A DNA stretch of 64,000 bases from Octopus sinensis. Lineage: Eukaryota. The position numbers and the translations under genes were made by a program. Location: positions 1,178,001 to 1,242,000 of the forward strand of contig NC_043009.1 of assembly GCF_006345805.1 (NCBI RefSeq). The letters are read 5' to 3'. The notes below the pieces were generated by a model. That model saw only the letters and a list, made by a program, of their open reading frames with translations. It did no database searches and had not been told where the DNA came from. The first letter of the stretch is position 1; each line of letters opens with the position of its first letter. Of this stretch, positions 1-38,600 are shown piece after piece.

Positions 1-91
1 ACATAGACACTCTCACCACAAATCTAGGGACTAAGTCATAACAAACATTCAGTATTGAAGCTGTTGAATCCTAAAGAGAATGATAAATTAC

Positions 92-4975: not shown

Positions 4976-4977
<2 letters not shown>

Positions 4978-5010
<33 letters not shown>

Positions 5011-5720: not shown

Positions 5721-5746
5721 TGAACAGAGTGTGTTAAGTGACTTAA

Positions 5747-6247: not shown

Positions 6248-9166
6248 CTTATCTGGTTGTGAAACTGGTAAGAAGGACATTTTGTTGTCAATCCAATTCT
6301 CTTGTCTCGTAGTGCCTGCTTCACCAACACCGGGTACAACACAAATCCTGCTGCCTTCAGGACCATATCCACTAACACCTGGAGCATAGCCACCAGGAAT
6401 TTGTACACTGGCGCCAGGACCAAAGGTCCTGCCTTCAGAAGCAATTCTGTTGTCAGTTGCATACAGTCTGCTGTCGGGCCTGTGTATTTTACCGTTTGGA
6501 CCATAGAATCTACCGTCAGGACCAAAGTATGCACTGTCAGGACTATATAGTTCACCATCGGGACCATACACCCTGCCATCTGGACTGTATACATGTCCGT
6601 CTGGGCCATAACCTTTACCATCTGGACCATACAATCCACCGTCGGGGCCATACACTTTGCCCTCTGGACCATATATAGAGCCACCAGGGCCATGACCTTT
6701 GCCATCAGGGGAATAAAATCTTTCGTCAGGACTATACAAGGTGCCATTGGGACCATACATTTTGCCATCAGGACTGTACAGTCGATTATCAGGACCAAAT
6801 ATCTTGCCATCAGGACCGAATAGTCTGCCGTCAGGACCATAAACTAGAGCATCAGCGTTGTATGGCTTACCATTAGGACCATACACCCTACCATCTGGAG
6901 TATAAACACTGTTGTGGGGACCATACCCTTTGCCATCAGGACCATGCAATTTACCGCCAGGGCCATACACCTGACCTCCTGGACCATACACTTTGCCGTC
7001 GGGACCATAATTTCTTCCACTTGGACAACACACAACACCATCAGGGCCATAACCTTTGCTAGGAGAGGAATAAAATCTTTTGTCTGGACTGTACAGTTTA
7101 CCATTGGGTCCCACCATTTTGCCATCAGGAGTGAACTCCCTACCACCAGGACCAAATACTTTGCCATCTGGACCATAGAATCTACCATCAGGACCATAGT
7201 ATCTACTGTCAGGACTGTATAATTCTTTGTCAGGACCATAAACCCTGCCATCTGGACCATAGACATGTCCTTTGGGACCATATCCCTTGCCGTCAGGGCC
7301 ATGTGGTTTGCCATCAGGACCATATATTCTACCATCAGGAGCAAATATTTTGCCATCAGGGCCATGACCTTTGCCATCAGGAGCATAAAATCGTTTGTCT
7401 GGTTCGTACAGTTGTCCATTTGGACCATACAATCTGCCGTCAGGACTGTACGCTTCACCATTTGGACCATAGCCTTTGCCATGAGGCTCTGGAAGTCCAA
7501 AACCTTTCCCTTCTGGAGCTTTGTATCCTTTTCCTTCTGGAAGCCCACACACTCTGCCATCAGGAGAGTACAGTCGATTATCAGGGCCACATATCTGGCC
7601 ATTGGGACCAAATAGTCTGCCATCAGGGCTGAAAACTTGACTATCTTGACTGTATGGCTTACCATTAGGACCATACACCCTACCATCTGGGGTATAAACA
7701 CTGTTGTTGGGGCCATAACCTTTGCCATCACGGCCATGCAGTTTACCGTCAGGGCCATACGTCAAGCCATCTGGGCCATATACCTTGCCGTCAGGACCAT
7801 AATTTCTACCACTTGGACAACACACGACACCATCGGGACCATACCCTTTGCCGTCAGGGTGATAAAATCTTTTGTCTGGACTGTATAGCCTATCATTGGG
7901 TCCCACCAGCTTGCCATCAGGTGTGAACAGTCTGCCTCCAGGACCAAATACTTTGCCATCTGGACCATAAAATCTACCATCAGGACCATAGTATCTACTG
8001 TCAGGAGTGTATAATTCTCCGTCAGGACCATAAACCCTGCCGTCTGGACCATAGACATGTCCTTTGGGGCCATATCCTTTGCCATCAGGGCCATATGATT
8101 TGCCATCAGGACCATACATTCTACCATCAGGAGCATATATTTTGCCACCAGGGCCATAACCTTTGCCATCAGGAGCATAAAATCGTTTGTCTGGTTCGTA
8201 CAGTTGTCCATTTGGACCATACAATCTGCCGTCAGGACTGTACGCTTCACCATTCGGACCATAGCCTTTGCCTTGGGGAGGTTCTGGAAGGCCATACCCA
8301 TTTCCTTCGGGAAGTGCAAAACCTTCTGTTCCTGGAGTCCCACATACACCACCATCTGGATTGTACAGTTTATCATCAGGACCATATATCTTGCCGTCGG
8401 GACCAAATAGTCTGCCGTCAGGACTAAAAACTTGAGCATCAGGACTGTATGGTTTACCATTGGGACCATACACTCTACCATCCGGGCTATAAACACTGTT
8501 GTGGGGACCATACCCTTTACCATCACGGCCATGCAATTTACCGTCAGGGCCATACACCTGGCTATTTGGACTACACACCTTGCCGTCAGGACCATAGTTT
8601 CTGCTGTCTGGACACCATACAGTGCCTTCAGGGCCATGCCCTTTGCCACCAGAGTCATAAAATCTAGTGTCTGGACTGTATAATCCACCATTGGGTCCCA
8701 CCACTTTGCCATCAGGAGTGAACTCCCTACCACCAGGACCGAATACTTTCCCGTCTGGACCATAGAATCTACCATCAGGACCATAGTATCTACTGTCAGG
8801 ACTGTATAATTCTCCGTCGGGACCATAAACCCTGCCGTCTGGACCGTACACCTGTCCTCTGGGACCATATCCCTTGCCGTCAGGGCCATGTGGTTTGTTA
8901 TCAGGACCATATATTCTACCATCAGGAGCAAATATTTTGCGACCAGGGCCATAACCTTTGCCATCAGGAGCATAAAATCTTCTGTCTGGTTCGTACAGTT
9001 GTCCATTTGGACCAAACAATCTGCCGTCAGGACTGTATGCCACACCATTCGGACCATAACCTTTATCGAGAGGAGCTTCTGGAAGGCCGTAACCTTTTCC
9101 TTCTGGACACTTGCATGCATCGGTCAAGGGCACAGCACTGGGATAGAGTTCTCCATTGACACTAGG
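6248..9166 (-). CDS. EPB41: Giant 2919-nt exon (973 aa) of xYGPDGx / xYSPDGx heptad repeats
   Basis: TCTTCTTTTCTAG acceptor, AAG|GTAGGT donor, phase 0 to 0; covers most of ORF 6056..9133 with no stops. Confidence 0.85.
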
Positions 9167-12100
9167 CTAGAAAAGAAGATACAAAATATACAATTGTAGT
9201 ATAATTTGTAAAATGAATTACAAAATACTTTTTTATAAATTCAGTTTAAAACAAATGGTGAAGAAGGAAAACGAGAGAGCAAAAGAGTAAATGCAGAATA
9301 CGTATTCAGTGAACCAGAAACATCAGTGTCAACTATCAGATGAATTCATAAAAGAATACCTCCTTTTACTGGTTCTAATCAATATCAGAAAAGTGTATAA
9401 AAAAAAAAAAGATAAGGAAGACAAAGTGATTGACTGACGACCAATGTTAACAACAAAGACACAATAATATATACAGAACAAATTCAACATCGGTACAGAA
9501 ACGGTACAAGATTTAAACGCTGCATAAATATGGAAATAAATACATTGGGAATTTCAAATGTTCTTTTTTTTTATTAATGTATTTACATTTGTTAATGTTA
9601 ATTAATTACACACACATAATGTAATTTTATGTGTGTGTGTGTGTGTGTGTGATAATTCTGGTATGGCTTTATCTGGCTGAGTGCATTACATTGTATTACC
9701 AGCACCAGAGTGATTGTCTACTATGGCTAAAGTATCCCTCTGCACTGTGTCAGCTTATATTTAGACTTACTGTTTTTCCAGCTGGATGCCTCACCACAAC
9801 ACTACTTGAGGGTAAGGTGTTCGCAGTGCAGAAATGTGAGGAAAGATGTGTGCTGAGGGATTTGTTTCTGGTTGGATGCTTTTAGATACAAATTTCTTTC
9901 TGGTTGGATGCTTTTAGATACAAATTTCTTTCTGGTTGGATGCTTTTAGATACAAATTTCTTTCTGGTTGGATGCTTTTAGATACAAATTTTTCAAAATA
10001 TCTTGAAGCAGATGGTGATTTGGGAGCCTGAATTAATATTCAGGATGAAACTCTTGTTTGGCCAGTATTTTAATTGTATCTATTTATAAATATAATTAAT
10101 TACATTACCATATGGTTTTTGAGCCAAACGCTATATCTTTGGGTACCTTTAATATTTTTACCCAAACATAATTCTCTATAATCTAGTATTTAAAAATCAA
10201 ACATTTGGTAACAGAAACACTAAACCTGAAAAGAGAAAGTGTTGTTAGATGTGAAAGAAGAATTGTCTGTTTCAGAAAATGATTGCTTCAAAAAGAAAAG
10301 AAAAAAGAAATACCCCCCCCCTCTCAATAAGCAAGAAAACATCGTTATCAGATTGGTACCATTTGATCTTGAGAAAATAACTCAAAAGGTATTGGTTGAT
10401 GTGAAGCACTGGTACAAGGTGCAACATGGTTGCACATCAAACCTAATCACACAGCCGTGCCTGCAGCTATATCCTGACACCTTTTTTTTCAGACACTGTA
10501 TCCTCGACTACATTATGATCCCATGCACCTTTTCTTTCTTTTTCTTTTCAAAGATGACAGAATGTGATTTAAGAAACTCAGCCACAATTTCCAGCACAAC
10601 AAGAGACCTAAAAGCTCCCCGTTATAGCAGTAGAAAGTGTTCTACGCATGAAACAAAAATATGCAATAATTACACATGGGGCCCTTCAGAATCATATTAG
10701 TGACCCTAATTTTAAAATAGAGGTTAAAATGAAAAATTCAGTATGTAAGAGAAACAACATTAGAAAAAACTTGAAAATGCTGGATTTTATTTATTTTAAA
10801 GTTCTTTATCTAGTGATCTGTTTTCACAATTTGATGCAATTCAAGTGCCATAGAGTCAATAGACATCTATGTAGTATAGCTAAAACATGAATAATGTTAT
10901 ATATATATATATATAAAGATCCTATTTGTAAATGTTTTTTTTGAGACAAACATTTTCAGATCAGTTGTGTTTGTGTGTACATGAAGATTATATATAAAGA
11001 CACAATGTAATGTTTTCTAATATTCTTTCATTTCTTCCAAACATGAGGGTGTATCAGTGACTAAGATGTGATGACAAATGGAGCATGCACGAAACATAAT
11101 GCTAACATGAAGCTACAATGACATTTCATACATTTTATGTTATGTGCAGTTGCTAAAAATCATTTTACACAGAAAGACAACAAGTAAAGCACATGAAAAT
11201 ACAATAAATAAATGATTAACAAAATAAAACAAAAAAAGGATGTTGGTTAAAACAGAAATGACACCAAAAGCTCAAGGGATGACCATGCCTTAAATATATG
11301 GAGGTTTGAGGGGTAATGGGATTGAAAGTGTATATGCATTCAGATTGGTGACTATTGAGGGAGAGAGAGAGAGAGAGAGAGAAAGTAGAGAAGAGATTGG
11401 AGCATAGTGATGAGTGATGAGTGATGGTTGAATATGTGGAACATTGCACAATGGTAAAAGTTGGTAAAATAACTTCCACATTGGAAAGGAATGCCAGCAG
11501 GCGTTTATAAACATTAGCTAAACAACAATGTAAGTGACATGGTGATGTTAATGACACCGACAGTAACAAGAACAATGGGTTAAGACGCAAAAGAGAGGAG
11601 GAGGAGGAGGAATGTTCTAGAACAGACACCTGACAACACTGGGGGAAGGTAGAAACACAGCACAAAAAAAGAAACAAGGGTTGATACATATGAGGTGTGG
11701 AGAGAAGCAGGTGAGAAAAGGACAGGGTATTAGGGGGGGGATGACACCACAAACAAGCAGGGTAAGCAAGAGGACGACAACGACGACGACGACGGGGTGA
11801 ATGGAGAAAGAAAAAAAAAGAATTCTTATTAGATATCTAAGAAGATTACATGAATGATAATTTGTAAAGGGACTGAGCAAAGTACTTTGTAGAAATTGGA
11901 AAACAGGGATTAGGAAACTAACTATACATGCCGAGATTCTATTTCTGAAGATGGTTATGAAACGTAGTAAGCAGATGAAGATGAAAAATGGGGCTCTAGC
12001 TAGAAATAAGGACACCCATGCACAGAGCTGTCAACATTTTTTTAAGTATTCAATTTAAAGACTGATTTATATTGGAGAACATGGAGGTAAATCCAAGCAA

Positions 12101-15100
12101 AATTTGCCCCCCTATTTAAAAGGTGTGAAACCCTTTAGCATTTAAACTGATCATATCCTGCCTAAATATTTTTCCTGTTTAGTGTTCAAACCAGTCAGAT
12201 CTTGCCTATCATACCTAACCTACAGTATCTTTCTATAAGTATACAATCACATCAATGAAATTTCAAAGCTGTGAGATAATGCCTGATTAATTCAAAACAA
12301 TGTGAATGAATAAGCAATAATCTGAATGCTAAAGGGCTAAATGTAGCTTAGAATAGATAGTTTGTGCGTGCGGGCCTACATGTGTTCGTATTATTAGTTT
12401 CAGCCGTTGAACTGAGTCCATGTTGGGGCACTGCCTTCAAGGAATAATCAATTAGAACAAATGCCAGCGCTTAGCAAGGACTTCGACCATGGAGGGATGA
12501 AACAAAGTGTGCTATCACAGGATTATTACCTTTGCCTTAGCGAAGGCAGAGGTATTGTTTTCAGTCATGTTTGTTTATTTGTTTGTCCGTAGACAAGATA
12601 TCTCAAGAACCACGAGATGGATTCAGATGGAACTTTCAGGGATGTTTGGCCTCGTGACTGGCATGGATTGATTAGATTTTGGGATTGATCCAGTACCTGA
12701 CAAGGATTCTGGATTATTTTTCCTGATTTTTTACTTAATTTTTGAGAGCTGTTGGGTTTATTTTTAGTATTCCCATTAGTGAGAACAGTCAAGTTTATTT
12801 AAGATATTCTCATTTTAAAATCATCTCTGGCCAATTGCTGAGAGGACGTTGGTGTTGCCTTGGCGGAGGTTTGCACTTTCTGAATGCTCTTATTATTATT
12901 ATCATTAAATATCTTCTGAAGTAGATTTGTTTAAAACAAAACTTAGAAAAAAAAAAAAGCTAGCTTATTGAAAGAGATTTAATTAGTGCCATGACAGGTC
13001 AAGTGACTATACAACTTCTTTCATTAGCTTATGAAGGTTTGTGTACATTTTTACCAAGGTCACAACCTATGATCCCGGTCATGACCATCCTGCCTTCTGC
13101 TTTTCTACCAGTGTATCCATGAGGCTATCCCATGTACTGTTTCCTTTTTAAGATGACAGATTTAAGAGAGATTTGCCTATTTCTTGCAGGTCAGGAGACT
13201 GCACAGAGGCATGTGAATTAATGGCTGAATATATAAAGATACGTAAATGTAGACCAAATGTAGGTTAGAATTGTGTAAAATTGGGAATATAATGTGTGTG
13301 TATCTAAGAAATCAGAACAGCTCCAGTTGAACAGCTCTGATATAGAAAAAATACACGAGATAGAGAGAGAGAGAGAGAAAGAACCGGGCCATGTTCTTAT
13401 TAGTAGACAAAGAGTAGATTGCAGATAAGTATTACAGGTTGGTGTTGGTAAACACCAACGACAGACAGAAGATGGCAAACCTTCTCTACCAATTCTTGTT
13501 CTTCGTCTAGAATAGGGGGTAACTTTGTCTTCATTTGCTCTGCCTGAGCATCAAATGTTGTCACCTTATCCTTGCCCTCACCTTCATCATCTGAGGAATC
13601 GGAGGAAGAGGAGGAGGAGGAACTGGATGAATGCTGTAAAGATGATGAGGTGATAAGAAGCATGAAGGTGCGTATAAAATGATGGCAACTAAAGTAGGAG
13701 TACAGTTGTTCTTAAAAACCAATGAATGAACTGCTAAGAAGATCACATTTGGGTGGGAGGGATGCTGGTTTGTCTGTGTTAGCTTGCAGTAAATGTTTTA
13801 TTTTCAAACTATAATAAACGTGTTTTAGAAAGTTTGGATGAGAGGAATGATAAATTTCGTCCTAGGTTTGATGTTTGTCCAAAGAAATGTAAAAAAAAAA
13901 AAAAATTAATTTTTTTTTTCCAGCAGATGATTTGCATCAAGTGTGAACGATGCAATATGAAAAAAATTGGAATAGAAATAGTCTGAAAAATTAACAAAGC
14001 TATCCTCACTTCTATAGATTTGTCTGCATCTATGTACATCGACACGTCTTTGTATATAAGTATATGTGTGTATGTATGTATTATGTGTGTGTACATGCAT
14101 ATTAGCATTATAAGTAAGTGTACGTGTGTATTTGTCAATATATCTATTAATTATGATGTGTGTATTTGTAACTATAGCAGATTAATTCATTTTTAAAACA
14201 AAATTAAACAAAATACAAGATTAAATACATAAAGAAAATTATGCAAACAAGAAAAAGTATAACCATAAACAAATAAAATTTAAAAAACAAAAAAATAAAC
14301 ATTAATAATAAAAAAACAATTTTTTTCAAAATAAATACAACAAAATACAAATTAAAAATTGATAAACAAAAACGTCTGATATATAACATGTTTTCTTTGA
14401 TGAGCATGCTTATATAGCAGGGAGAAGTAGAAGTGACAGCATGAAAATGTCCAAGCCGAAGCCTTAAAGGTAAAAGCCACTTCAGGTGGATTCAGGGGTG
14501 GTTGATTGGTTGCAATAACTGAAATACTAACAAAAATGACTCCAGTTCAAATCCCTGCAAAGTCACTGGGATACTTTTTAACTGTCTTACATCACACACA
14601 ATACATCCAGATTAAGCCATAAATCATAGTCACTAAACTAATTAGCTAAATAATAGATTTGGCTACAATAAATAATTGGTTTGGATCAACAATTATGAGA
14701 ATGTATTTAATATTAATAACAATTATAATAATTCTTTCTAATTTTGGTACAAAGCCTGCAATTTTAGGGAGAGGACACTAGCCCTGATTGCATTAACCCC
14801 AGTATGTAACTGGTACTTATTTTACTGAGGATGAAAGGCAAAGTTGACCTTGGTGGCATTTGAAATCAAAACCAAGAATCAGCTTGTTGCCTTAATAACA
14901 ACAACAATAATCCTTTCTACTATAAGCACAAGGCCTGAAATTTTGGGGGAGGGTGCTAGTCAATTATATCAACCCCAGTACGTAACTGGTACTTATTTCA
15001 TAGATCCCAAAAAGATGAAATGCAATACTGACCTCTGTGGAATTTGAACTCAGTATGTAAAGATAGGTAAAATGCCACTCAGTATTTTGCCCAGCGTGCA

Positions 15101-18100: not shown

Positions 18101-21100
18101 ATCACAGGGTTAGCATATCGCTGGTCCTCTTCTAGAGATAAATCCACTAATGGACTTGTAGAAATCCAGTGATCATCCTTGAAGAGGTTGCTACGAAGCA
18201 GCTATTACGGAGAAAGGCTGGGTGCCTGCATTACTCAACTCCCTGGAATATAAAAGGAAAATCTTAACAGGGTTAGCACTAAACTTTGGCACTGACAGAT
18301 AAAGCACTCGGATTCAAAGAAACCATTAGTGGTCTGAGCTGACAAACCTCCATACAACAAAGTTGCAAAATAGAATGAGTTTGTCATGAAACATTACACA
18401 GTATCAAGTGTAGTGTCTTAAACAAAAACAGATAAATTTGGATTCAAGGCACCTTAGTTATTTTTGTTCAATTTTCTTAAAAGCTTCCGCCCTATGTGGA
18501 ATAACTGGCAATGCATTTCACGAAATATTCAGTCATCTGTGCAAAATCCCAGATAACAAGATAGCAGGACATAGTGATGGGGCCGCAATATCAAACTACA
18601 TCTTAACGAAAAATGATGGCTGCAACCAACAGTGACTCAGTACAGATATAGTAAAGAAAACTACTATTGGGATATATCTTAAAAATATGTACTTCTGTCA
18701 GAGCTGGGATGGGTATGTTGAAAATCTGAACTATATATATATATATGTAAAATCTCCAATAAATTGCAAGCCAGTTTTGAGTTGGATATGCAGTTACAAG
18801 TATAACTGGATATTACTGAATCACAAACTGATATTTGTAGAAAGGAATGTGTGAAAGCTTATTAGGAAATGTAACTTGACAGGGACAATGAAACATGAAA
18901 TGGAAACAGACAGCAAAAACTAGCAGGAAGCAACAGCAGCCCTTTTTCTTTTTCTTCTTTTCTTTCTGAAGCTGTATACAAGCAGAAATAACAACAGCAA
19001 TAACTGGAAGAAAACACACGAAAAAGCAAGAATTTGATAAGAATTCTTATAATGTTGATAAGTCCATCAAGTAGCAGAGACAAACTGGATGTCATAGCAG
19101 TGCACTTCAGATTGGACTAATCCAAACAGCCCCACCACTTTTCTTCTTCAGATCAATTACTAATACACATGACCATCACACGCAACAACTTTTAAGTAAA
19201 AGCAAAATAGTGAATAAAAAGATTTATCAAAATTCAAAGAAAGATGTTCTTTCCTTTTAGTCTACAATCAGGTTGTAAAATCATAGGAATGTTATAAAAA
19301 CTGGAATAAAATCTCAAGAAAGTTAGCTCAACCAAAAGTACTGATCTAGTTTTATAATATTAGTAGTGATTTATTGTTGAGGAATGAAATAAGTTTGGCC
19401 GGGATTCAATCAAAATAACTAGGGCAGTGTATTACTGCCCTTAATTTTATTGAATGGGGAGTGGGGTGGGCTGAAAAAAAAATGAAGTTTGAGATTTGAA
19501 ATCAAAGACAAGACAGTGCACTATTCCTACAAACTCACTAAACCTCCCATTTTATTCTTTAACATTATTACTAAGACTAACAATTTTCCTGCATCACATT
19601 CAGTTTAAGACATTTCAGTGACTCATCAGGCAGTCTTTACAAAAATCTGAAAGTAGTGCACTACCATGGTTTAGTAACGATGGTTAAAATAAAACCTTCC
19701 ATGCTGGAATGGGTTGGATGGTTTGACAGGAGCTGACCAGGCAGAAGACTGCACCAGACTTCTGTGTCTGTTTTGGCAAGGCTTTTATGGCTAGATGCCC
19801 TTCCTAACACAAAGAAGTGTTATTTTTTATGCAGGTCTCTAAAATGGATCAGGTATTTTAGATAATTTTGAATAACTTTTTTAGAGATATGAAATATATT
19901 TATTTTCAAATTTTCTATAGGATTTTGTTTTTATATTATCTTTCTATCAAAAAAGTCAAATTATTTTAAAAACCATAATTTTATCTTAACATCATCTGGT
20001 TTAAAAGAGAAAAATAAAACTGCTTTTTATGAACAAAATTAAAACTGTTACCTATCTTGAATATTATACAAAAATACTGTAAACATGGAACAGCACTTAA
20101 TATATTAAAATATATATTTGAACTGCTTTTAATATCGTTCATAAAAAGTGCTTGGAATAATAATAATAATAATAATAATAATCCTTTCTGCTAAGGCCTG
20201 AAATTTGGGGGAGTAGAGGGGACTGGTTGATTACATCCACCCCAGTGTTTCACTGATATTTAATTTATTGACCTCAAAAGGATGAAAGGCAAAGTCAACC
20301 TTGGTGAAATTTCAACTCACAACATAGCATCAGGTGAAATAACACTAAGCATTTTATCCGGCACGCTAACGATTCTGCTAGTTCGCCACCTTATTAATCC
20401 TAATAATAATAAAAAATTTTAAACTGACCGTGCAGGCAATCATTTAAAACCATAAAACCTCAGAATGCACTTGTTAGACAACAAAGTGATAATTGTGAAC
20501 CTGGAAGGCAAAGATGCCTTGAAATATACCCTGGTGAGGTGAGGAAAATATTAGCCAAAAAGCATCATTCAAAGAACAGAACAAATGGGAAGATTGCAGT
20601 TCGAAAGATAAACATGATAAATGGATTAAAGCAAAAACAGGGATTAGATTCTGCATCATCTACAACTGCTGAAAATGCAGCAGAGCATGCTGAACAAACA
20701 GAAATGTCTGTTGTCACCTTTTCGGATCTCTTTTTAAAAGGATTTCGCATAGGACACATAAGTCCAGATGATGACCTATGGACGCTCTTCTGTAAGACCA
20801 TGGAGATATTATATATACACAGATATATATATGTAAATGTTTTATATATATATACAAACACACGCCATATAAAAATAGTCTAAGGATGTAATAATTAATA
20901 AACTGAATACCTAATTTGAAACATAAGTTTCATTAAAAATCTGAGTCAAAATTGATGGAGACAGCTTGACAAATAATTACTGATGCATAGTTTACAAGTT
21001 AAAAGTTGTAAAGAATTCATTCAAAAATGGATTTTATGAATCTTAAAATATAAGTGAAAGATATGTGTGTAAATTTTACAGTTAAATACCACACTTAATT

Positions 21101-24100: not shown

Positions 24101-27100
24101 TTTCGGTTGTGACTATGACAACAGAGTTCTTTTCAATGGCCATAAGAATGAGTTATAAACGATCGATAGAGAAATTTCTTAAAGGAACAAAAACTGCTAA
24201 GTTAAACAGAAGACAAGAACGGAAGCCATGAAGCGGAGACTGAAAACAAGAGCAGATAACAGAGAGAGAGAGACGGAAGGGTAAAACGTTTTAATTTCGA
24301 AAATCTCTTCAACACAACAGAATTAACTGGCACAAGTCTTGAAGAGAAATTAATTGTTCTCAGCTGAGAATCAAAGTCCAGCCATGAAGAAATTTCTTTT
24401 AAAGAGAAAATATTTTGCCAAGAAAAGACATAAGTGAGCCTAAGAAACATATCCAACAATAATTTTCTCTATTTTTGTAATTCTAATTAATGAGCTACAA
24501 TAAGGATGAGCAAATCAAATAAAATCACCCTAAAACAAAACAAAGCAAAACAAAAAACAAAAAAGACCTTTTTGGACTCTTTCTTGATACTCTCAGTGTC
24601 TGAGACATCTACCTCCACAGATTCCACTTCCTGTTGTAATAATACAGGGGAGTTAGAAAATTTTGTATAAAAAAATTAACATAAAAAAACCCCCAACTGT
24701 TTATGTCAATTTATCAGGTTTTAAATGAGAAATAAAAACCCTCAAGTTTGTTTGGTCCATATTCGTCATCAGTTTTGTCTTTTAATAAAAATTTATTTTC
24801 AAAATTAGCAAAGTTCTTTTTTTTCTCTGGTTTCATTTAATATCTTATTAAAAGTTAAGGTGATGGTAGTTGTCTGAGAAATACAGGTATGAATTTGGTC
24901 ATTTGTTTAGAAATTATGTAAAATTATATGAGAATGACTTGTATTGGAGCTTTACTTGCTGTATTGCTAGTGAGTATTTCATCGATCTTTTTCTAAAAGA
25001 GTAATAAGAAAATTGACTTCGTTAGATTTGCTGCTTCTCACTCTAGAAAGTTGAGCAGGAACCCAGTGATAGAGAAATGATTAAAACGAGTACTGAAGAC
25101 GACAACTTGTGCCATGAAGCTGCCTGAAAACAAAGGCAGATAACTGAGACAGACTGAACGGTAAAACTTTCCAGCTTAGAAAATCTCTCCAACAGAACAG
25201 AATTTAACCGGTACAGGTCTTGACGAGTAATTAATTTATCAATGGTTCTCAGTTCAGAATTAAAACAGGTGTCAATTTAAAGGAGTTTTGAGTTTTTTTT
25301 CTTAAAGTGAATATCTTTTGCCAACAAAAAAGGCCTGAGATATAGTTAAGTCAGCCTAAGAAACAGAGCCAATAATTTTTTCTGTCCTCTTAATCCATCT
25401 CCTACAGTTAAGATCAGCCAGAGAACAAATCGAATAAAATCACTCAACAACAAAAACAGAAAAAGACCTTTTCGGGTTCTTTCTTCTTGGTTTCCGTAAC
25501 TTCTACCTCCACTTTTTTCACTTCAACTTCCTGTTGCAATTATAGAGGGGAGTTAGAAAACTTTGTTAAATAACAACTAGAAAATTTTTAAATAATATCA
25601 TCACAAAACTCCAACTGTTTATATCAATTTATCTAGTTTTAAGTGAAAAACAAAAAGCTTCAAATCCTTTTAATACATTCCCTTTGTCATTTTTACACTT
25701 TAATAAAACTTCATTAAAATTTATTTAAAAAAAAAGAAGCTATTTTTTTTGTTTTTGTTTCATTCAATGTCTCATTAAAATGCAGATTATGAGATTTGTC
25801 TGCGAACTATAAGCATACATTTGATTGACTTTTGAAACTAAAATTGACTTAGATTTGCTGCTTCTCACTCTAGAAAGTTGAGCAGGAACCCAGTGATAGA
25901 GAAATGATTAAAACGAGTACTGAAGACGACAACTTGTGCCATGAAGCTGCCTGAAAACAAAGGCAGATAACTGAGACAGACTGAACGGTAAAACTTTCCA
26001 GCTTAGAAAATCTCTCCAACAGAACAGAATTTAACCAGTACAGGTCTTGACGAGTAATTAATTTATCAATGATCCTCAGTTCAGAATTAAAACAGGTGTC
26101 AATTTAAAGGGTTTTTTTTTGAAAGAGAAGATCTTTTGCCAACAAAAATGGCTTGGGATATACATATTAAGTCAGCCTAAGAAACAGCCAATAATTTTTT
26201 TCAGTATTTTTGTAATTTCAATTTATCTACTAGAATAAAGATCAGCATGCCACAGAGCAAATCGAATAAAATCACTCAACAACAAAAGCAGAAAAAGACC
26301 TTTTCGGGTTCTTTCTTCTTGGTTTCCGTAATTTCTACCTCCACTTTTTTCACTTCAACTTCCTGTCACAGAAAATTTTATTAAATAATATCATCACAAA
26401 ACTCCAGTTGTTTATATCAATTTATCTCATTTTAAGGGAATAATAAAAAGCCTTAAATCCTTTTAATCCATTCCCTTCATCATTTATACATTTTAATAAA
26501 ACTTCATTAAAATTTATTAAAAATAAAAGCCCTTTTTTAAAATTTCATTTAATGTCTCATTAAACTTCAGATTATGGGAGTTGTCTGCAAACTATAAGCA
26601 TAGGTTTTATCAGTTGCTTACTATATTACTAGTAAATATTTGATTGACTTTTAAAAATAAAAGTGAAAAGAAAATTGACTTAGATTTGCTGCTCTAGAAA
26701 CTTGAGCAGAAAGCCAATGATAGAGAAATGATTAAAACGAGTACTGAAGACGACAACTTGTGCCATGAAGCTGCCTGAAAACAAAGGCAGATAACTGAGA
26801 CAGACTGAAGGGTAAAACTTTCCAGCTTAGAAAATCTCTCCAACAGAACAGAATGTAACCGGTACAGGTCTTGAAGAGAAATTTATTAATCAATTAATTA
26901 ATTGTTCTCAACTGAGAATCAAAACAGGTGTCAATCTGAAGAAATTTCTTTCCAAGGGAAAATATTTTGTCATTAGAAAAGAGCTTAGATATACATATTA
27001 GTTAAGTGAGCCTAAGAAACAGAGCCAATAATTTTTTTCAGTATTTTTGTAATTTCAATTTATCTACTAGAATAAAGATCAGCATGCCACAGAGCAAATC

Positions 27101-29632
27101 GAATAAAATCACCCAACAAAACAAAAACAGAAAAAGACCTTTTCCGGTTCTTTCTTCTCAGTTTCCGTAACTTCTACCTCCACTGTTTTCACTTCAACTT
27201 CCTGTTGCAATTATACAGGGGAGTTAGAAAATTTTATGTTAAAAAACCCCAAAAGACACAAATTCAATCCATCCCTTTCATCATTATCATTTTTATCTCT
27301 CTTCCTTAACATTTTCATAGACAGAATAGAAACCAGTCGTCTTCAATATATCTTGCTCCCACATCGGCTTCAGTGCTTGTAGAACTGGAGAGCATTCCTA
27401 CATGTTCTACTGACTGCAGATCCCAATGTGCGGAGGTTTTATTGTTTCAGAAGAGGTAGACAAGTACGTAAAAAAATGCACACATACACACACACATATA
27501 TATATACATACATAGTCACATATGCACACACACACACACACACACAAAATACATATATAACCTCATTTGCATGCATGCATCCATACATACATATTTAAAG
27601 CGTTAAAGTTTGGATTAATGATAGAGGACACAATTGTATCTGGAGAACGACATAAACCTGCTAAACAAGCAGTTTTATGTCAGAGGGTATGACCAGGCGT
27701 TTAAGTGAATATTTGTTTCTCTTCAATACAGGCCTGTAATTTAAGACATCTGATGCTGTCTTGTCAATAAACTGTATCCTGATCACAATGAAAACACAAC
27801 ACATAATAAATGAATACAAGTTTTGATTTTCCAAACACACACACACATATTGAAGGCATAGAAGTATCTGAAATTAAAATTTTTTTAAATATAAATTACT
27901 GAATTATATAATAAATTAAAATATACTCTATAGTTAAATTACATAGGAATAAAAAATGTTCATTTATCAACAAGAATCTTTAATTATTGATACACAGAAA
28001 ACATTGTACTTTCCTGAAACAGTAATATTAGTAACAATACAAAGTGAAAGAGATCAATAGATTTCAACAATTCCTCAATACCACAAACCAAAGCAAAGAC
28101 AGAAAAAAGAAATGTCATGCAAAAAGTAAAGGATTTCCAGCTCAGAGTATAACAATATGTCTTTGAGAAGAGGAATAAGAAATGTATTAAAGCAAAATGA
28201 AGTGAAGAGTGTGAAATAGCCTCATCATCCTCATCTATTGTTTAAAAAAAATATTCTTTTCCTTGTTTCAGCCATTGGACTGTTGCCATGCTGGGGCACC
28301 AGTTTGATGAGTTCAGTCAATCTAATCAACCCCAGTTCTTATTCTAAGTTTGGTATTTATACTGTTGGTCTCTTTTTGTTGAACCACTGAGTTACAGGAA
28401 TGTAAACAAACCAATACTGGTTGTAAAGTTTTGAAAGACAAGTACACACATGGTGAGCTTTTGTGCAGTTTCTGGCTATCAAAGCCACTCACAAAGCATT
28501 GGTCAACCTGGGGGGGGGGGGGGCGCCCACAGTAGAAAACATTTGCTTAAAATGTTGTGCCATGGGACTTAATGCAAAATCACATGTTTGTAAAGTGAAC
28601 ATTTCGACAATACAGCCATGCCTACCGCTAGAAGACACCCAAAGTGCTGCACACTGGGCCTATAAAAATTACTGGAAAGAAAATTGTGGAGAAAGGGGCT
28701 AAAATAAATGCTCTTTGACACCCTTACATCTATGAACCTGTAATTCAGTTTTCAGCATTGGTCTTGACAGAATTTGCTGTGAAATATGTTTGGATTATCC
28801 TCACTGTCATTGTTTTAGCATCCAGTTTTCCAGTTGCTTGGGTCAGATGGAATTTATTGAGTTGGATTTTCTACAGCTGGATGCTCTTCCTATCGCCAAA
28901 CCCTTACTTGATTCCCAACTTGGAATACAACTGGATAATTTCACTTGCATTTCATTTAGTTTTTCTCTGCACCCCATCCACAGTATTATACTATTTAGAG
29001 GCCATGTTAATGGTAGGAATAAGTAACCATTGAATGGATTATAAGAGCTTGTTGGTGTGTTTTTCTAATTGTAAGGTACCAGGTAACTAACTGGGAGGTT
29101 ACAAGTTCAGATCTTGTCAGAGACATGGCATTGTGACAACCATCAAGTTACTTAACACTCAACACCTGAAGACATCTTGCTCAGAATGTAACTTAGGAAA
29201 AAAATGGCCCTGGGACTCAAGTTGCGTGTTTTCTCCGAAGGCTGGGAAAAAGAAGAACTCATCTAAAACAGAGAAGAAATTTTCGGCAGAGAAAATAGAT
29301 TTTTTACCAGATGCATTCCTTAGTCTGACGCAGGCAGAATGTTATTTTCAATTTTATATAATTGTGATTAGCTACATTAAATTTAAAGGATATCTTCATC
29401 AGTAATTAAAAAAAAATTGAACTGGGATAAAAGAGAATGAGGAAAATGATTGTTAGAATAGGGGAAAAAAGCTGCAAGTTAGTAAAGAACCATAAGGATC
29501 ATTAGTATGTAATGTAGGAGAGGGAAAAGAAGAAATAGGTTAGACGTGAAGAGGACAGAAGTTGAAAATCAACCAGCAGAGAAGAAGAGGAGTGGATTGA
29601 AAAACCGTGCCACGATATTGAAATTGAGACAG

Positions 29633-29684
<52 letters not shown>

Positions 29685-32600
29685 TGTGTACAAGACAATA
29701 GATGAGATAATGGAAAGAACTCTTGCAAAAACTAAGGAAAGCTTAAGTTGCAGCTTTCAGTACTAGTGTTAGTGACTAATAGAAAGACACTAAATGATTA
29801 GTTCACCAAATAGATTGGAACTGGGAATAATAAATTAGTGGATAATAAATTGACATTTATGTACAGGTATATATGTATATGTACACATGAGTAAGCATAA
29901 ATATACAGGTATATGCACACATAATTCACGGTTGCCATTTAGTGAAGGAAAACTAGAGGCAGAGTGGTTGTTTAGTAGAGAACCCAAAAGTTAGAGAGAT
30001 CAAATGCAATGTAAGTGACAAATTAGAAACCTGAGTCATTTCTTTTTCAGTTGGAGATGCAGGAGGTGTTTTGCCCTTATCTTTATCTTTTGGATGTTTT
30101 CTAAATTTGCCAAATAAGCCAAGTCTTCCTTTCTCTTTTCCCTGGAGTATTTATAAAAATGGACAGAGTGAGAGTAGGAAATACAATGAAAGGAGATGAA
30201 ATGGTGAGAGAACAGGACTATTTCGCTTGTAGTCTTCAGATTTATTTTATTGACCCTGAAAGGATTAAAAAACAAAGTCAACCTTGATGGCATTTGAACT
30301 CAGAATGTTAAGTTGGAAGTAATGCTGCTAAGCATTTTTTCCAGCACAGTAACAATTCTGCCAGCTTGTCACCTCAAAACTTCTTGGTGTCATAAATGTC
30401 CATTTAGACCTTGTCAGATAAGCTGTGGCTTGATCTGGAGGTAGAGCAATTTAGAGAGGAAGCAAAATGGGGAAAAAAAAAGAAAAAAATGTTTTGAAAT
30501 TGTACTTATCTAACAAGTGTTTTGATAAATGTCTGTGTATTGAAGGTGAAGTGAGTATATCATTGAAGAAGCATTTTAGCCATGTAAAAATCCACATGAG
30601 CTGTGGCCTGGTCACAGTTTTACTGCAACCGTTTGAAAGTTTGCTAATAGCCAGTTTTTTTCATAGAACCCATCTTTGCTTGCTTTCATGATGATAAAGA
30701 CATGAGTATTCATGCTGACCGATCTTGGTCTCTTGATAGTAGCCGTCACTAGTTACTTGGTACTTGCATCAGTAAATTTCACCAGATTCCAGTGTATACT
30801 GCATATACACACATGAGAAGCAACATGTACAGTAGGTGAAAATTTTGCTGGGGATATACTAGCTTCAATGGTACTAAAGTGGTCGAGAAACATATTTCCC
30901 ATCCAAGAACAAAGCGGCAGTCCTTCAAACATTTTATTTCAAGCACACTCTCTCTTATAATGTCATCTTTATATTATATCAGAAGAGAGTTTGTTTTTTT
31001 TTGTATTTATGAAGCATAACTGTTGTTAAATGAAGGCTCCAGAGGAATGACTGCTAGTGCCAGGGAGGCAGCACAAGTAAATCCAAATTCAAACAAAACC
31101 TTCATCAATTGAGCTAAAATCTGCCAACAGCGTGTCTTCATGGTATCTATGAGTGAATCAGTAATTCAACAATTCTGTGGCTGTTATTAACTTTATCAGA
31201 AGCTTATTATGTTTATTATTGTATAAGTAGTTAATATACACAAATAGCAGCTACTATAATCTATATACATGTGAATTAGCTACTAACCTCATAACGACCA
31301 GCTAAGACTGGCCCTTCAATGTTTTTTTTTAATAGTTAGGGTTAGTGTTACGATTAGATTAGAGAATGGATGTTCAGTGATGATAGAACAACTTTGATAT
31401 ATCAATTTTGGGTTTGTTACTGAATGACAAATACTCAAGGATTTGTTGATACAGAGAACAGCAATTACAATAAACCAGGACATAAAAATGTTTTGCAAAA
31501 GTGTTTCAGGGTCAGTGCAGTTATAAAGATCTTTCTTTTTTTTTTGGCTCACAGAAATAGACAAAATACCAAAAATATGTTGCCAGAAATATTTTTTTGC
31601 CAATGGTGCTGCAACCCAAATAAATTAATGGCTGTGATGATGGACAGCCAGTGCACCTGAATTTTATCAGAAACAACATTTTTCTTCCAAATGGTAAATG
31701 TTTATAAATATAATTCAACATCATCCTCATTGTTCTTACATCTGTTTTTTCCATGCTGGCATGAATGAGATGAAACTTATTGACATAGCATTCTACAGTC
31801 AGATCCTTTTCCGGTCACCAGACTGACCCTATTTTCAATGAAGTTATTTTTATTCCACTGTTCTTCAGAGGCCAAGCTCTTAGGGGGCACACTGTGTATG
31901 AGGGACATACACATGACAAGTCATTTAAATGGTGTTGAGTAAAGGCACATGGAAAGGAAGCATTTATATTCAGGACAGGTTTTTCTACATTTTCTCACAA
32001 TCAATTTTACTCAAAAAGGCATTAGCTCGGCCCAAGCTGCTCAAGGTGTCATCCAGTGGGATGGAACTCAAAACCATGTGATTACAAAATGAACTCTGAA
32101 TCCATGCAGCCATGCCTACACCAGCAATAAGAATCATTTGCTTTATCTGAATGACCACTTATCTGTGACCACTGGTCAGCTGGTCTGATTATTTTTTTTT
32201 AAACAGAGAAAGTGGATGGGCTTTCATCAGCTTTAACCCATGATAACGAAACTTGTAATTAAATTACACTAAGTCTCGATTAATTTCGAAAAATAATCAA
32301 AAGTTTGGAGGAACTTAGTACAATAACTGTTTTCACACATTGGAATATCTCAAACTGGTGACTGAAACCTAAAAGATTCTGACATACTATTAGGATGGAA
32401 GATGTAAATGTAATTACAAGCACTTCTAAAACAGTTAGGTTTTTATATTAGGGAATTCTTAAGTGGTCTAAGGTGGTTTGGTATAAAAAGGAGTTAAATG
32501 GAAGAGGAGTATTTAAAGAGAATTGAATAACATTTGTGACCCTTTTGCTTTTAGTCTTCAGCATCTCTAACAACTCTGTGTAAACATTACCAACCTTCTC

Positions 32601-35600
32601 TTTCTCAGCAGCAACTTCAGGTTCTTCCTGAGGTTTCTGTCCATTCTTAAGGTTGTTACTCTGCAAAAATACAATAATTTTGAAGTGAAAATACAATATC
32701 GTGAAATTTTGTTTTAAATTAAAAAAAAAAGTTTAAAAAAAAAATATTGTTTGAAAAAAAGTTAATTGTAAGCTGCTGTCTTGAATCAATCCAATAACGG
32801 TGGAACTTCAATAACGAACTGTTGTCAATAGAGTGTACTAAGTGCTTTTAACATGGCACATTTTGTCTGTCTTTTCAAGAATGCCAAACTACAAGATGTA
32901 AGGTGGATGGGAGACATAAACATGACAACCCAGTCACTTAAATAGTATCAGGCAAAACCACAAAGTAAACACTCTTGCACACATCTTTTATCCTTTTCAC
33001 GTTGACCAGTCCAAGTGCTCAAAGTAGCCATTATGGGAATGGATAAATTTGATAATATCGAAACAAAAACTGGTTTTGGACTCTAAAGTAATCCACAAAT
33101 TGCTTATCCATACAAATGTTTTCTTCATCTTTCAGTCCTAAATTAACCAGAAAGTTATTTTTTTATATTGTGTTTAATATGAGGAATTTGAGATGAAACT
33201 TTTTGCTAACAACAGCTGGCTGGTAACCCTTTAACCCTTTTGTTACCATATTTCTGTTGAGATACTCTGTTTCTTTCAATTAATTTTAAACATAACAGAG
33301 AAATTAGTAAAATAACGAAGCGAGGGTTAGGAACATAAATTGTGACAGGTTTGGTGGAAGATTTTAATTCAGAACTTTTGAAAACAAGACAGTTGTACTA
33401 CAGGGCCAGAGCCAGTTTCAGCTGGGTCAGTATTGAAAGGGTTAAGCAGATAAAGTGTTTGGGATCCACTAATTTTGATATGAACAGGGATGGCTGAGTG
33501 ATTAAGAAGCTTGCTTTACAACCATGTGATTTTGGGTTCAGTCCTATCGTGCAGCAACAAAGGCAAGTGTCTTCTACTACAGTCCCGAACCAATCAATGC
33601 TTTGCAAGTGAATTTGGTAGATGGAAACTGTGTGGAAGCCCACTGAGTGCATGTGTGTGTGTCTTAGTGTTTGAGTTTGTCCACCATCCGCCACACAAAC
33701 AGTGTTGGTTTGTTTATGTCCTTATAGCAGTTTGGTAAAAGAGTCTGACAGAATAAGTACCAAAAAAAAAAAAAGATACTTGGGCTGATTTGTTCAACTA
33801 AACTTTGGGAGGCAATGCCCCAGCATGGCCACAGTCCAGTAGCTGAAATAAGTAAAGGAAAGAATAACTAGTTGATAACATTATCAGTGGTTATAATGAA
33901 CAGCTTGCTCTGTGTCTGAATCTCAATCAACGCAGAAAAGAATATATATTGTTGAAAGAGATTAGTGATTTTATCCACCTGGTGGTGGGTCGAAAGATTA
34001 GCCTGACTGTCCACTAAAACTTATAGGGATCCAATGGGAAGTGTGTTATGGTCATCACTACTAATTTTCTAATTGCTAACACAATGGGACACAGTACTGA
34101 CTTATACCGTGTGTCTACAAGTCATTAATATCTATGTACCAATGAAAAATATGCTATTTACTCACAGTTTCAAGGTCTGCTGCAACTGGTTTAACTGCAT
34201 CAGCCCTGATTACTGAATCATCATCAGTCTATAACGGAAATAGAAATAATTTAACATCCAATATTTTCATTTCTCTTTTATATTTCTCCTCCAATAAATT
34301 CTCTCTCAAAGGAGATGAAGTCATAAACAAAGCACAAAATACAAAATGGAATTCATTTAAAATAATCTAGTTTTAAATTCACAATCTGGTAATTTCAAAT
34401 TCATAATCTTTAGCATTAGTATACGTTGTGGAATGTAGAATTTTACAGACCTTTATTTTTTTTTTACAGAATAATGGTTGATATTGACAGTTAAAAATTT
34501 TTGATAAATGCCCGAGGGACAACTGCCCATAATCGGGGAGCACTTGGAGTCAGCAGAAACAGAAGTGATCGATAACTGCAATGGTGTGACATCCATGCAC
34601 ACAAACAAACCTACAGAATTCAGGATACTCAAATAGGTATCATATTAAGATTTGTCATCCATCTGTGTTGATATCCTAATAAAATGATTTAATAAGACAT
34701 TTTCATTATTAAAACAATTAGAAAAAAAAAAAAAGTTTGGTTGATGAGGTTTCTCAGTAGATGCACCACTAGTACATGAAAACAAAAAAAAAAACCAACA
34801 AAAAACTCATGGAAAATTATATATCTCTTCATGTCTATCAAGCTATTTCAATTTATATATCCCAAACAATTATCAATCTCAAACAAACCCTATAATGCCA
34901 GAAATATTGATGCTTTTACTAATATTACAAGAGTTCAAGACAATTAGTTTATTGTAACAACAAACTGTAGTTTTATAGTTAAAATGTCTAATAACTAATT
35001 CACGGTAAAAGCAACAGGAATAATTTTTTTTTAAGCCACAATGCTTCAGATTTTAGTAACAAAAAATTAGAACAGGTAGTATTTATATTTCTAAACTAAT
35101 TTTGAAGGTTGGATAGAGAGGAAACACAGAAATGGATGCTATCTCTAAGTCCATACAATATATGAGCTATATATATTAAAAAAGAAAAAAAAAAGGAAAG
35201 TGTTACAAGTGCTTTGAACATTTGCATTAGTGCTTCAAGTGCGATAAAATGAATGTTTTAAAATCTATCTTTGGCAAGCATATTAGTAACAAGCAATAAA
35301 TAAACAAAAAGTCTATCATTTAAAATTAAAGTAAAAAGGGAAAAAAAATGAGAAAAGAACATTGAGAATATTTTGACTGATGTGAAACGAATATTTAATG
35401 CAAGATAAATATTTATAAACACAAATACAAAACAAAAACAAAACGCGGAAAAAAAAAAGAACTACGTATATCTGAAAATACACACAGAACTTATGTCAGA
35501 AGAAATAACTGGGTCACTGGGACAATAGATATAAAAGAAAGTTTTTGACAGAGGGCCTCAAAATCAAATCTGCTCGGTCGAGTCTACCTGTTAACTACAA

Positions 35601-38600
35601 TCAAGCTCAATGAAATGAAGGCTTACGAGAGGTGCAACGGTTTTAAGTGAGGATTGAAAACTCCAGTTGACCTCTTGACCTCGACTTTATCGTAAAAAAA
35701 AAAAAACCCAGATAGACGTTAATCAAATAGAATCGGTTGCTAAGATCAAGAAAGGCAACTCCTTCAATGCTATTTGTGGAAGGTGCATAACTCTTACACA
35801 CCAACCAACAAGGGGAGACACTTTAGACATTAGAATGCTGTTTTCTAACACGAAGAAATACATTTTATGCCTTCAAGGAAGAAATGCAACGTTTTGAGCA
35901 GGGTTCATTCCCATTCTCTCTCCACGAAGAGATCGACCCAAAATGTTAGACTTCTTCTTCAAGGCATATAATTTATTCCACTATTTGAACCTATCGCATT
36001 CTTATTTACCAAAGCACTGCTTTACATATATGCCTGAGTATCGTTTTGTTTTACAAATGTTGTTCTTATTTTCTTGAAGAGATATAGAAGCAATACAAAC
36101 ATTACCCACAGAGATATGGCCAAACTCAATCATTTAAAATATCCATTTCATTACGTTTCTGAGTTCTGTTTCAGTTGGGATAATAAAACCTAATCCCTTG
36201 GATTATTGTTGTTGCTTAGCCTCGAGTCAGTCCTGACTTAACAAACCTATGGCCAACTTTATTCCAGCTGTACCAGGTATAGTGGACTAACGACTACATT
36301 ATGAAATGTCTACCCACCCCACAAGACAATAGGTTGAGATTTGAGGGATTTTGCAGCTATCTTTAGCAAATGTGAGTGGATTGCATGGTGAGATGTGATG
36401 CAAATCACCACAGCTGCTCTTTCATACTCCACCATCTTAGAAAGGGACACATTCAATATGACCCCAGGTGTATTGTCTTTTGAAAGGAGATGGGTTGCTC
36501 TCAACCAAAATGGTTTTCATGATGGATTTTTCTGAGCCTGAAATAATCTAGGCCTAAACAAGTACAGTTAAGCTGCTGAGCTGGGAGTCCACTCATTTCA
36601 ATTTCTTCTCTTCTTTGTATAAATGCATGCATTTATGGGATCACACCAAGATGATCGTTTATCTTTGAATAGTCACATATAATTTTTTCTACTCTAGGCA
36701 CAAGGCCCGAAATTTTTGAAGAGGGGGGGGGGCAGTCAATTAGACTGGCCCCCAGCAACTGGTACTTAATTTATCGACCCCGAAAGGCAGAAAGGAACAG
36801 TTGACTTTGGCGGAATTTGAACTCAGAATGTAGAGACAGGTGAAATACTGCTCAGCATTTCTTCTGACATTTCTGCCAGCTTGCTGCCTTAATAGTTACA
36901 TATGAGAAGAAACAGTGTCTGTAAATGAACTGATACTGTTGTTATTAATGGTACAACTGATTCAATGACTTAAACAATAATACCTGTCATTGAGACAGGA
37001 ACAAATACTGAGATAAGTAGATTTTGAAATGGGATTTCACTTTAAGATACCATAAAATATCTAATTTTACTTTTGCAAGGACTCTTTACAATTCTGCGTT
37101 ATAGTCACACAAAAACACAAAAAAGAGCCTATATGTGACTGTGTTCAAAGGTGTTTACTAATACTAGCTAATCCATTGGTGCTCACTAAGTGAAAAACAA
37201 ATCTAATTCTTGACAGACTAATTGTACAAACACGAAACAGAGAAAACAACATAAAACGAAACGAAAACACGAAGAACACAAGGAAATCCTTTGAGAGAGC
37301 GCTGTACCATTTTGTCAAGACGGTCTTCGGAATTTGATAGTTTATCATTTATGCCCTTTTTCTTTCTCTCCTTCTCCTCCTTTTCTCGCCTCTTCCGTTC
37401 CTCCTCCTCCCTCTTCTTTTGTTCCTTCTCTCGCTTTTTCTCGTCCTTGTTGGAAGGAGGCCTTTTGAGGTAGGAGATGGGCATACCACCTTCTGTGGAC
37501 CTTGCATCATATTCTCCACCCGAGTAGTCGGCAGTCTTAATACTCTGAAAGTAGACATTCTAACACATGCAAATCAAACAACAAAACCACAAATACCCAG
37601 AGCGCAAGACGCAGTAAACAAGCAAGTGCATGTGGAATGGGGATGCCTGCAAGTGCACTTGGTGCATGAAGCAGATTTAAGACAACATTGTGAAATGGTG
37701 TTAGATTAAAACTCAACAGGAAACAAATCACAAATATAAAACAACTCAATCTAGTGCTCCTATCTATATGATATGGTGGTGGGTGACAAAGAGAGAGGAA
37801 GGAGTAGAAGAGTAAGATGGCTAGAAAGTGGAGGGTCTAGAGAGAGAGAGAGTGTGTGAGAGTGGAGTTTGTGGCAGGAGAAGAGTAGAGCTGGTGCACG
37901 AAGGAAAATGGAGCTAGTGTATGAAAGAGATGGTGTAGGGAAGAAAAGTGTAGCTACTGGAAAGAGGTAAGTGTATCAAGTGGGAGGGGAAAAAGAATGG
38001 AGCTTATCTCAGTGGGAGCTCACAAAGGAAAGTGTAGAGGGAAGACTAGAGTTGATGTGTGTGTGTTTGTGTAAAAGTGAAGCCCAAGGAGAAAGTGTTA
38101 GGTGACAGAATGGCAGATGCATGAATCTACATACTACAGGGTAAAGCTGATGACTGGTTATAATATATATATATATATATATTCCACAAAGCATGGCACA
38201 TTACATCAGGATGAACAATGAAGTTAATCCCAGAACATTGGTTAGTCAAGAATAAAGATTATAACAATTACAATTATTGAAATCATTTCTTACATTAGTA
38301 GAAGGTCACAGATTCTGGACACAAGGCACAGTTGATTAAAAAGACTCCCAGTACTAGACTGATACTTATTTTATCAACCTCAGAAAGATGAAAGGCCAAG
38401 ATTTGAACTCAAAATGTGAAGGGGTAGGACTAAATACTGCAAAGCATTTTGTCTAGCACTCACTGACCTCATGATACTAATGGTTTAAAATTTTGGCACA
38501 AGGCCAGCAATTTCAGAGGCTAGGATAAATCAGTTGTATGGACTCCAGTGTTCAACTGGTATTTTATCGACCCTGAAAGGATGAAAGGCAAAATCGACTT

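Follow-up and report, generated by a model that had tools for sequence, protein, structure and literature searches.

The stretch of DNA analysed here, 64,000 nucleotides of Octopus sinensis (NCBI RefSeq assembly GCF_006345805.1, contig NC_043009.1, positions 1,178,001 to 1,242,000 of the forward strand), is called the window in what follows, and all positions are counted from its first letter. It contains most of one minus-strand gene, and the feature under study, between 6248 and 37544, is probably the variable linker that joins the FA region to the C-terminal domain (CTD) in the Octopus protein 4.1/coracle membrane-scaffold gene. Upstream of this linker, seven minus-strand exons between 42375 and 53749, delimited with Pfam (FERM_M, FERM_C and FA) and with tblastn of 4.1 homologues, encode FERM lobes M and C together with the last part of lobe N, as well as the FA region. 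In the Pfam scan FERM_C (E 2e-16) and FERM_M (E 1.6e-4) each fell on a single exon and the FA region (PF08736) was detected at E 2.4e-13, so that both the 4.1 type of FERM domain and the FA region are present. Moreover, a search with one FERM exon gave 7,978 matches, and among the 120 listed the named ones were protein 4.1 or band 4.1-like; one FERM exon was 64-78% identical to lophotrochozoan 4.1 records. The closest among the matches listed, P0212 (760 aa, 78% identity), possesses the 4.1 CTD (PF05902) and is collinear with the window from the FERM domain through the end of a giant exon described below. The start of the FERM N lobe was not found in the window, nor was a CTD exon (PF05902) in positions 1-6247, and the gene appears to continue beyond it. 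Among the literature matches listed, none dealt with octopus 4.1/coracle or with the heptad repeat of the giant exon.

The eighth exon of the FERM/FA side (40917..41152, minus strand, 236 nt, phase 1-0) sets phase 0 for the linker, and is 55% identical in P0212 and a 100% match to part of the Octopus sinensis protein XP_036355969.1 (P0007); beyond this exon, P0007 and the window differ at single residues. The locus is mis-annotated in RefSeq, where P0007, a 4.1 fragment, bears the name "glutamic acid-rich protein-like". Following the direction of transcription on the minus strand, the linker begins with a 237-nt exon (37308..37544), which encodes a charged E/R/K helix of about 30 residues resembling a single alpha-helix (SAH) and aligns end to end with residues 428-526 of P0212. 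It continues with a 63-nt exon (34166..34228), also present in P0007; a 66-nt exon (32595..32660, donor GTTGGT), seen in P0007 and in a splice joint of run X7, at which two splice paths branch; and a 111-nt exon (30031..30141, donor GTTTCT), whose acceptor is used in X7 and which encodes the basic/hydrophobic motif GLFGKFRK. Next come R1-R4, four tandem 63-nt Glu/Val/Lys/Thr exons with GTCTTT donors (24568..27201; R1 27201-27139, R2 26362-26300, R3 25530-25468, R4 24630-24568), delimited by contig joints, and a 72-nt exon (20718..20789), whose acceptor is joined to R4 in run X15. The last two are a poly-Ser/acidic exon (13481..13633), of 69 nt (13633-13565) or 153 nt (13633-13481) with donor GTGACA or GTTTGC, and a giant exon of 2919 nt (6248..9166), whose acceptor is used in P0007 and which holds an array of heptads between short conserved ends.

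Together with the eight upstream exons, these linker exons form a 19-exon chain that reads as one stop-free frame of 1,645 aa. All the linker exons listed have AG/GT ends, a length divisible by three and phase 0-0, and they sum to 1,291 aa, 973 of them in one exon; the phases of the eight upstream exons are 1-2, 2-2, 2-2, 2-0, 0-0, 0-2, 2-1 and 1-0, and their donors all begin with GTA. Thus, the exon sizes and phases given in the original prediction were all recovered, except for an exon of three nucleotides, and its contrast with FERM exons of mixed phase and GTA donors was confirmed for all eight. Its further statement that every exon after 40917 is of phase 0-0 holds for the exons seen, to which it is limited since the gene exceeds both window ends. 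In addition, open pseudo-exons occur in all nine phase classes (15 in class 0-0, true exons included, vs 3-11 in the eight others), and therefore phase symmetry read from DNA alone is partly circular. The non-consensus donors attributed to the linker withstood comparison as an average: matches to the consensus at +3 to +6 have a mean of 3.25 out of 4 on the FERM side (n=8) and of 1.4 out of 4 in the linker (n=12). Nevertheless, the 237-nt and 2919-nt exons have GTA donors, unlike the weak-donor exons of the linker, and R1-R4 arose as tandem copies of a single unit, exon plus intron, that measures about 830 bp (R1-R3 being 92-98% identical in DNA), so they represent one event and one weak donor, not four. 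As for the three-nucleotide exon, it could not be pinned down, since a scan from 20717 to 13634 gave three AG-NNN-GT candidates, at 18242 (minus strand), 18827 and 16684, none of them supported; the one at 18242, a single Gly codon, has the best pyrimidine tract of the three and may be the exon in question. The minus-strand donors of the 72-nt exon (20717) and of the 69-nt form (13564) are identical across 11 bases (AAG/GTGACAAC).

Public sequence runs were compared with the interval 13400-33399 only, using 4 of the 24 runs listed; these are assembled as contigs and their RNA status is guessed, none being recorded as RNA, so they are silent on inclusion levels and tissues. Of 832 joints in all, 15 were shown, three of which have CT..AC ends at predicted exon boundaries, and one more was given in a separate table (R4 to the 72-nt exon, X15, 424x). 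The three comprise the joint from the 66-nt to the 111-nt exon in X7 (760x, with a short side of 67 letters), that from R1 to R2 or R3 in X15 (945x), and that from R2 or R3 to R4 in X5 (268x) and X17 (168x). Their depth, 168-945x, compares with 2-20 for the 32 contig pieces listed, and, given that they lie at the exact predicted ends, the GTTGGT and GTCTTT donors are used as predicted. The exon boundaries are thus independently supported by the contig joints and by the proteins P0007 and P0212. Among the joints shown for the four runs, none connects the 111-nt exon to R1 or the 72-nt exon to the 69/153-nt exon, and none is a splice joint of the poly-Ser exon at 13481..13633. The other 12 joints shown lie in interspersed-repeat stretches and lack CT..AC ends. 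A joint from 13622 to 22453 (X5 and X7) was considered as a new exon and rejected: read on the plus strand it gives an acidic C-terminus ending in HSEL-stop, and most likely belongs to another locus. Depth bins leave the 66-nt exon uncovered in X5 and X17, and in X7 they leave R1-R4 uncovered along with the 72-nt exon; as gaps in contigs are no proof of anything, these were not used as evidence. The X15 contig that joins R4 to the 72-nt exon is without 12 bases of R4 (24584-24595), an in-frame allele or species difference that fits coding constraint.

The P0007 model connects the 66-nt exon straight to the 2919-nt exon, omitting seven exons (196 aa), so that the 66-nt exon leaves by two paths, to the 111-nt exon in X7 and to the giant exon in P0007. 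The orthologue P0212 is also devoid of the whole 196-aa block (the 111-nt exon, R1-R4, and the 72-nt and 153/69-nt exons). P0007 goes out of frame after about 37 codons of the giant exon, a frameshift probably due to misassembly of its 43-kb scaffold. The seven-exon skip in the RefSeq model makes alternative splicing likely; as P0007 is a computational model with a frameshift, the skipping is likely and not proven. The linker exons are therefore likely to be mixed and matched by alternative splicing. The proposal of a splice-tunable linker is likely to be right, in view of the weak-donor exons that are spliced in, the two paths from the 66-nt exon and the optional nature of the corresponding modules in bivalve isoform models, but no such support emerged for the stronger form, in which any subset of exons could be skipped.

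Several points weigh against reading this interval as the spliced linker of a 4.1 gene. The CTD exons lie outside the window; no joint shown unambiguously skips an exon; the runs are contig assemblies only guessed to be RNA; the giant exon is outside the interval compared with them; skipping in O. sinensis depends on a single computational model, frameshifted and from a 43-kb scaffold; and the two AlphaFold models of the heptad array, with a short strand every 7 residues, are of low confidence (pLDDT 37.7 and 57.4). Nor does a joint from R1 to R3 prove that R2 is skipped, a candidate proof which was rejected, as the first 30 and the last 32 bases are common to R2 and R3 and the sides of the joint measure only 25-28. 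As a rival reading, the exons could be mostly constitutive, with no joint shown that clearly skips one, P0007 being a flawed model and P0212 a protein of another species, so that their omissions would stem from prediction error or species differences, with phase symmetry as a by-product of duplication from one phase-0 ancestor. This is very improbable, since the same skip is present in two independent protein records, in strength the linker donors fall measurably short of the FERM-side ones, and every aligned relative with several records shows isoform variation at the FA-CTD interval.

This variation across relatives, taken from bivalve, brachiopod and shark isoform records which are annotation models, is in favour of a spliced linker. 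All the records listed for Sinanodonta (7/7) and Lingula (10/10) have an identical FERM/FA core, and the in-frame blocks in which they differ lie mainly between FA and CTD, giving linkers of 365-536 aa and 229-351 aa, respectively; as exceptions, differences also occur at the N-terminus in one Sinanodonta record and immediately ahead of the CTD core in two. In the shark Mustelus (24 records), four of six gap runs fall between FA and CTD. When the octopus modules were compared with 10 homologues under shuffle controls, four of them matched bivalve segments. A module similar to the charged helix of the 237-nt exon, whose E/R/K run of about 30 residues is free of helix breakers and has, on inspection, the composition of an SAH, was present in one of seven bivalve records, and the GLFGKF motif of the 111-nt exon as a cassette also in one of seven (0/200 shuffles). 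A similar poly-Ser SSSS..EDGEGK segment was found in all seven and in the protein of the mirid bug Apolygus lucorum (P0021, KAF6197634.1), and the end of the giant exon, an (N/R)KM(S/E)F module, matched a 31-aa cassette in two of seven. For the 63-nt, 66-nt, R and 72-nt exons, none of the 10 homologues gave a significant match. The linker of P0021 also displays a poly-Ser run and GGLFG-basic motifs that resemble the octopus 69-nt and 111-nt exons.

A linker made of cassette exons is, accordingly, the norm of the protein 4.1/coracle family and not an innovation of soft-bodied animals; a bivalve and an insect have matching modules as well, and the design is a known one. Drosophila Coracle shares the FERM-FA arrangement, a central divergent region of considerable length (the full protein having 1,698 aa), a conserved C-terminal region and alternative exons (PMC2132682, PMC3315501), the latter being regulated by Muscleblind (PMC3315501). 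Compared through its published description, its linker modules are different, the octopus cassette exons are more numerous and smaller, and no YGPDG array is mentioned in the excerpts of its published description (PMC2132682, PMC3315501). In vertebrates, 4.1R/4.1B (EPB41, EPB41L3) have FERM, FA and CTD as well as extensive splicing, the shark records being numbered to isoform X44; human 4.1R is extensively spliced and its 21-aa exon 16 controls membrane stability (PMC10887211). These proteins differ in the spectrin-actin-binding domain PF04382, which appeared only on vertebrate rows among the 120 matches listed and was not matched in the Pfam scan of the octopus linker exons. The lophotrochozoan 4.1 proteins (Sinanodonta, Lingula, Capitella, P0212 and P0215) are variable in the same interval, with SAH, GLFGKF, poly-Ser and KM(S/E)F modules that correspond to those of the octopus, but their linkers measure 229-536 aa against at least 1,370 aa in the octopus chain with all exons. 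In addition, consecutive symmetric exons with identical phase which encode disorder and arise by tandem duplication are a general pattern (PMC3632108). As a protein 4.1/coracle gene is expected to have a cassette-exon design, little is learnt from that design alone, and it is the giant heptad exon that represents the worthwhile lead of the locus.

This exon encodes 973 aa without a stop, with about 118 in-register heptads of the form [RK]-[VLGF]-Y-G-P-D-G, the Pro being kept in register in 110 of the 118. It contains 22.5% Gly, 14.2% Pro and 71 P[DN]G turns, and the array is built of three higher-order units of about 265 aa each, 86-89% identical in DNA over 230 codons, and a partial fourth. 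The ratio of nonsynonymous to synonymous substitution (dN/dS) between units is 0.29, 0.42 and 0.32, which indicates that the exon is constrained as protein (purifying selection). Furthermore, the 12 residues at its start and the 28 at its end match residues of P0212 that are adjacent to each other (607-644; 0/200 shuffles each), and the array has therefore most likely grown within an ancestral exon that was short, the counterpart of which measures about 31 aa in the bivalve and 40-60 aa in P0212. These data also bear on the possibility of near-neutral drift, by which a dispensable, disordered linker would gather duplicates and repeats that keep the frame, with variable inclusion and little functional consequence. 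The near-identity of R1-R3, duplicated introns included, the great divergence of linkers between phyla and the exons without a match in the 10 homologues are what drift would leave behind; it is nevertheless quite improbable as a general account, in view of the low dN/dS and strict heptad register of the giant exon, the SAH, GLFGKF, poly-Ser and (N/R)KM(S/E)F modules common to octopus and bivalve, and the high depth of the inclusion joints.

No close relative of the heptad array was found in two protein searches and the Atlas. A homologue search with the giant exon (535-1703 aa) retrieved six weak NHL/propeller proteins among 8000 candidates, and the Atlas gave no usable match. In phmmer, 712 matches were obtained at E<=0.001, the best of the 150 listed being 16-50% identical apart from P0007; they were rejected as relatives, appearing to be driven by composition (15 of the 150 were scanned with Pfam and 20 checked by name), and none of 183 proteins matched the FERM query by blastp. 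The Pfam matches on this exon (Proteasome_A_N, DUF4440, GBD_IRG7_N and DUF6998) add up from short stretches and were treated as artefacts. The heptad mega-exon is lineage-specific, and is the only unusual part of the linker. Two other 4.1 proteins have turn-like repeats in the linker: P0021, which carries 4_1_CTD, has 23 GKDG-type motifs, and the annelid-like P0215 has five 30-aa GRLLGPDGRPL repeats. P0215 alone has at least three G[PK][DN]G motifs among the 120 FERM matches listed, from which it follows that DG-turn repeats in the linker are sporadic. Such look-alike repeats at the same position in other phyla suggest a recurrent structural module or a mutational hotspot.

The original prediction compared the linker to titin, as an adjustable spring at membrane or junction attachments, and called this mechanical role speculative. 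Such a spring would bear load between the membrane-bound FERM domain and a cytoskeleton-bound CTD, with splicing setting its stiffness in muscular tissue. This is unlikely. In its favour, R1-R4 are 81% Pro, Glu, Val and Lys over 84 aa, short repeated E/V/K-rich exons in a spliced and extensible segment being the likeness to the titin PEVK region, and the giant exon is rich in Gly and Pro and changes linker length more than 4-fold. The term PEVK-like suits that composition; the array itself consists of four recent 21-aa duplicates with 3 Pro in all. SAH domains are reportedly able to act as springs, but the stretch found here extends over only about 30 residues. No positive evidence for the spring emerged: there are four exons and 84 aa, without PPAK, Ig or Fn3, vs more than 100 PEVK exons in titin (PMC6469411), so that the likeness is an analogy at most. 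The presence of matching modules in bivalve and insect also argues against it, and as PF04382 is restricted to vertebrate rows among the matches listed, there is no evident second anchor that would bear load. When the part C-terminal of FERM is expressed by itself in Drosophila, all of it is cytoplasmic; the central divergent region does not compete for neurexin binding, and FERM alone suffices for localisation (PMC2132682).

In the 4.1/coracle linker proposed here, optional exons would serve to insert or leave out modules for spacing and binding, and not to adjust a load-bearing spring. Binding to neurexin/Caspr-type tails and junctional localisation are known for Drosophila Coracle (PMC2132682), and from what is known of the family, FERM-FA likely anchors the octopus protein to membrane proteins of junctions or synapses through their cytoplasmic tails (in Drosophila, that of neurexin IV), while the mostly disordered linker would set the reach and the choice of partner for the CTD. 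Weak donors and frame symmetry may let tissue-specific splicing factors switch the 196-aa block. Inclusion would add spacer length and, judging from the sequence, short modules such as the charged helix, a rigid element, the basic-hydrophobic motif, the acidic and phosphorylatable Ser run and the heptad array. Symmetric disordered exons would tolerate duplication and repeat growth, and through this tolerance R1-R4 could have arisen and an exon of 40-60 aa could have grown to 973 aa.

The heptad array is predicted, with low confidence, to form repeated beta-turns or short hairpins. A fold search with its model gave no match at Z>=5 (best Z 3.5, with a root-mean-square deviation of 4.4 over 53 aligned residues), and a PDB sequence search found nothing significant (best E 0.023). 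The top rows of the latter were the heptads of the RNA polymerase II CTD, which have the same period of 7, with Tyr and Pro two apart; the match is not significant and is driven by composition, the octopus having G/D/K/R in place of S/T, which leaves an analogy only. PDG turns build the single-layer beta-sheet of CPAP (PMC3776556), and the repeated PDG turns of the octopus array, with the modelled strand per 7 residues, recall this TCP (G-box) domain of CPAP/Sas-4. Such likeness is a lead only: a period of 7 leaves strands of just 3 residues, Tcp10_C (PF07202) is not among the four families listed for the giant exon at E<=0.1, and CPAP is absent from the fold-search listing, which excludes nothing. 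For an array of this kind, a multivalent disordered chain rich in Tyr and Arg is equally possible. A beta-hairpin ribbon and a multivalent scaffold are equally possible forms of the array; displaying about 100 aromatic and basic side chains, it could, at low confidence, serve both as a long spacer and as a multivalent binding surface.

A bolder reading, which is unlikely, would have this spot of the 4.1 linker repeatedly and independently growing repeats of Gly/Asp turns among protostomes (YGPDG heptads in octopus, about 118 of them, heptads with GKDG in the mirid bug and GPDGRPL 30-mers in the annelid). The octopus form would be a splice-switched beta-hairpin ribbon whose hairpins would unzip one after another, absorbing shocks in the connection of membrane complexes to the cytoskeleton where tissue is highly deformable. 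By arithmetic, such a ribbon would measure about 55 nm folded and 350 nm unfolded, and, if real, would constitute a new elastic module in a membrane-skeleton adaptor. If the array turned out to be switched by splicing and to be elastic or to form condensates, a testable handle would be gained on the tuning of attachment in invertebrate membrane skeletons, which are without the vertebrate spectrin-actin-binding module.

Some minor features of the window may also be mentioned. On the minus strand, 22530-22489 is a possible 42-nt phase-0 exon, with a GAG acceptor and a GTAGTT donor, for which no match was obtained in the 10 homologues. At 18971-18921, also on the minus strand, a TACAG acceptor is followed by a phase-0 polybasic run and GCCCF, which recalls either a cassette for palmitoylation/membrane targeting or an alternative end; none of the splice joints shown lies at this site. 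An abundant interspersed repeat, similar to a short interspersed nuclear element (SINE), is present at many places in the introns (among them 14700-15200, 17300-17550 and 20200-20400) and dominates contig depth. Finally, a 32-bp tandem repeat of 4.1 copies lies at 9860-9991, and repeats of 72/87 bp at 63531-63884.

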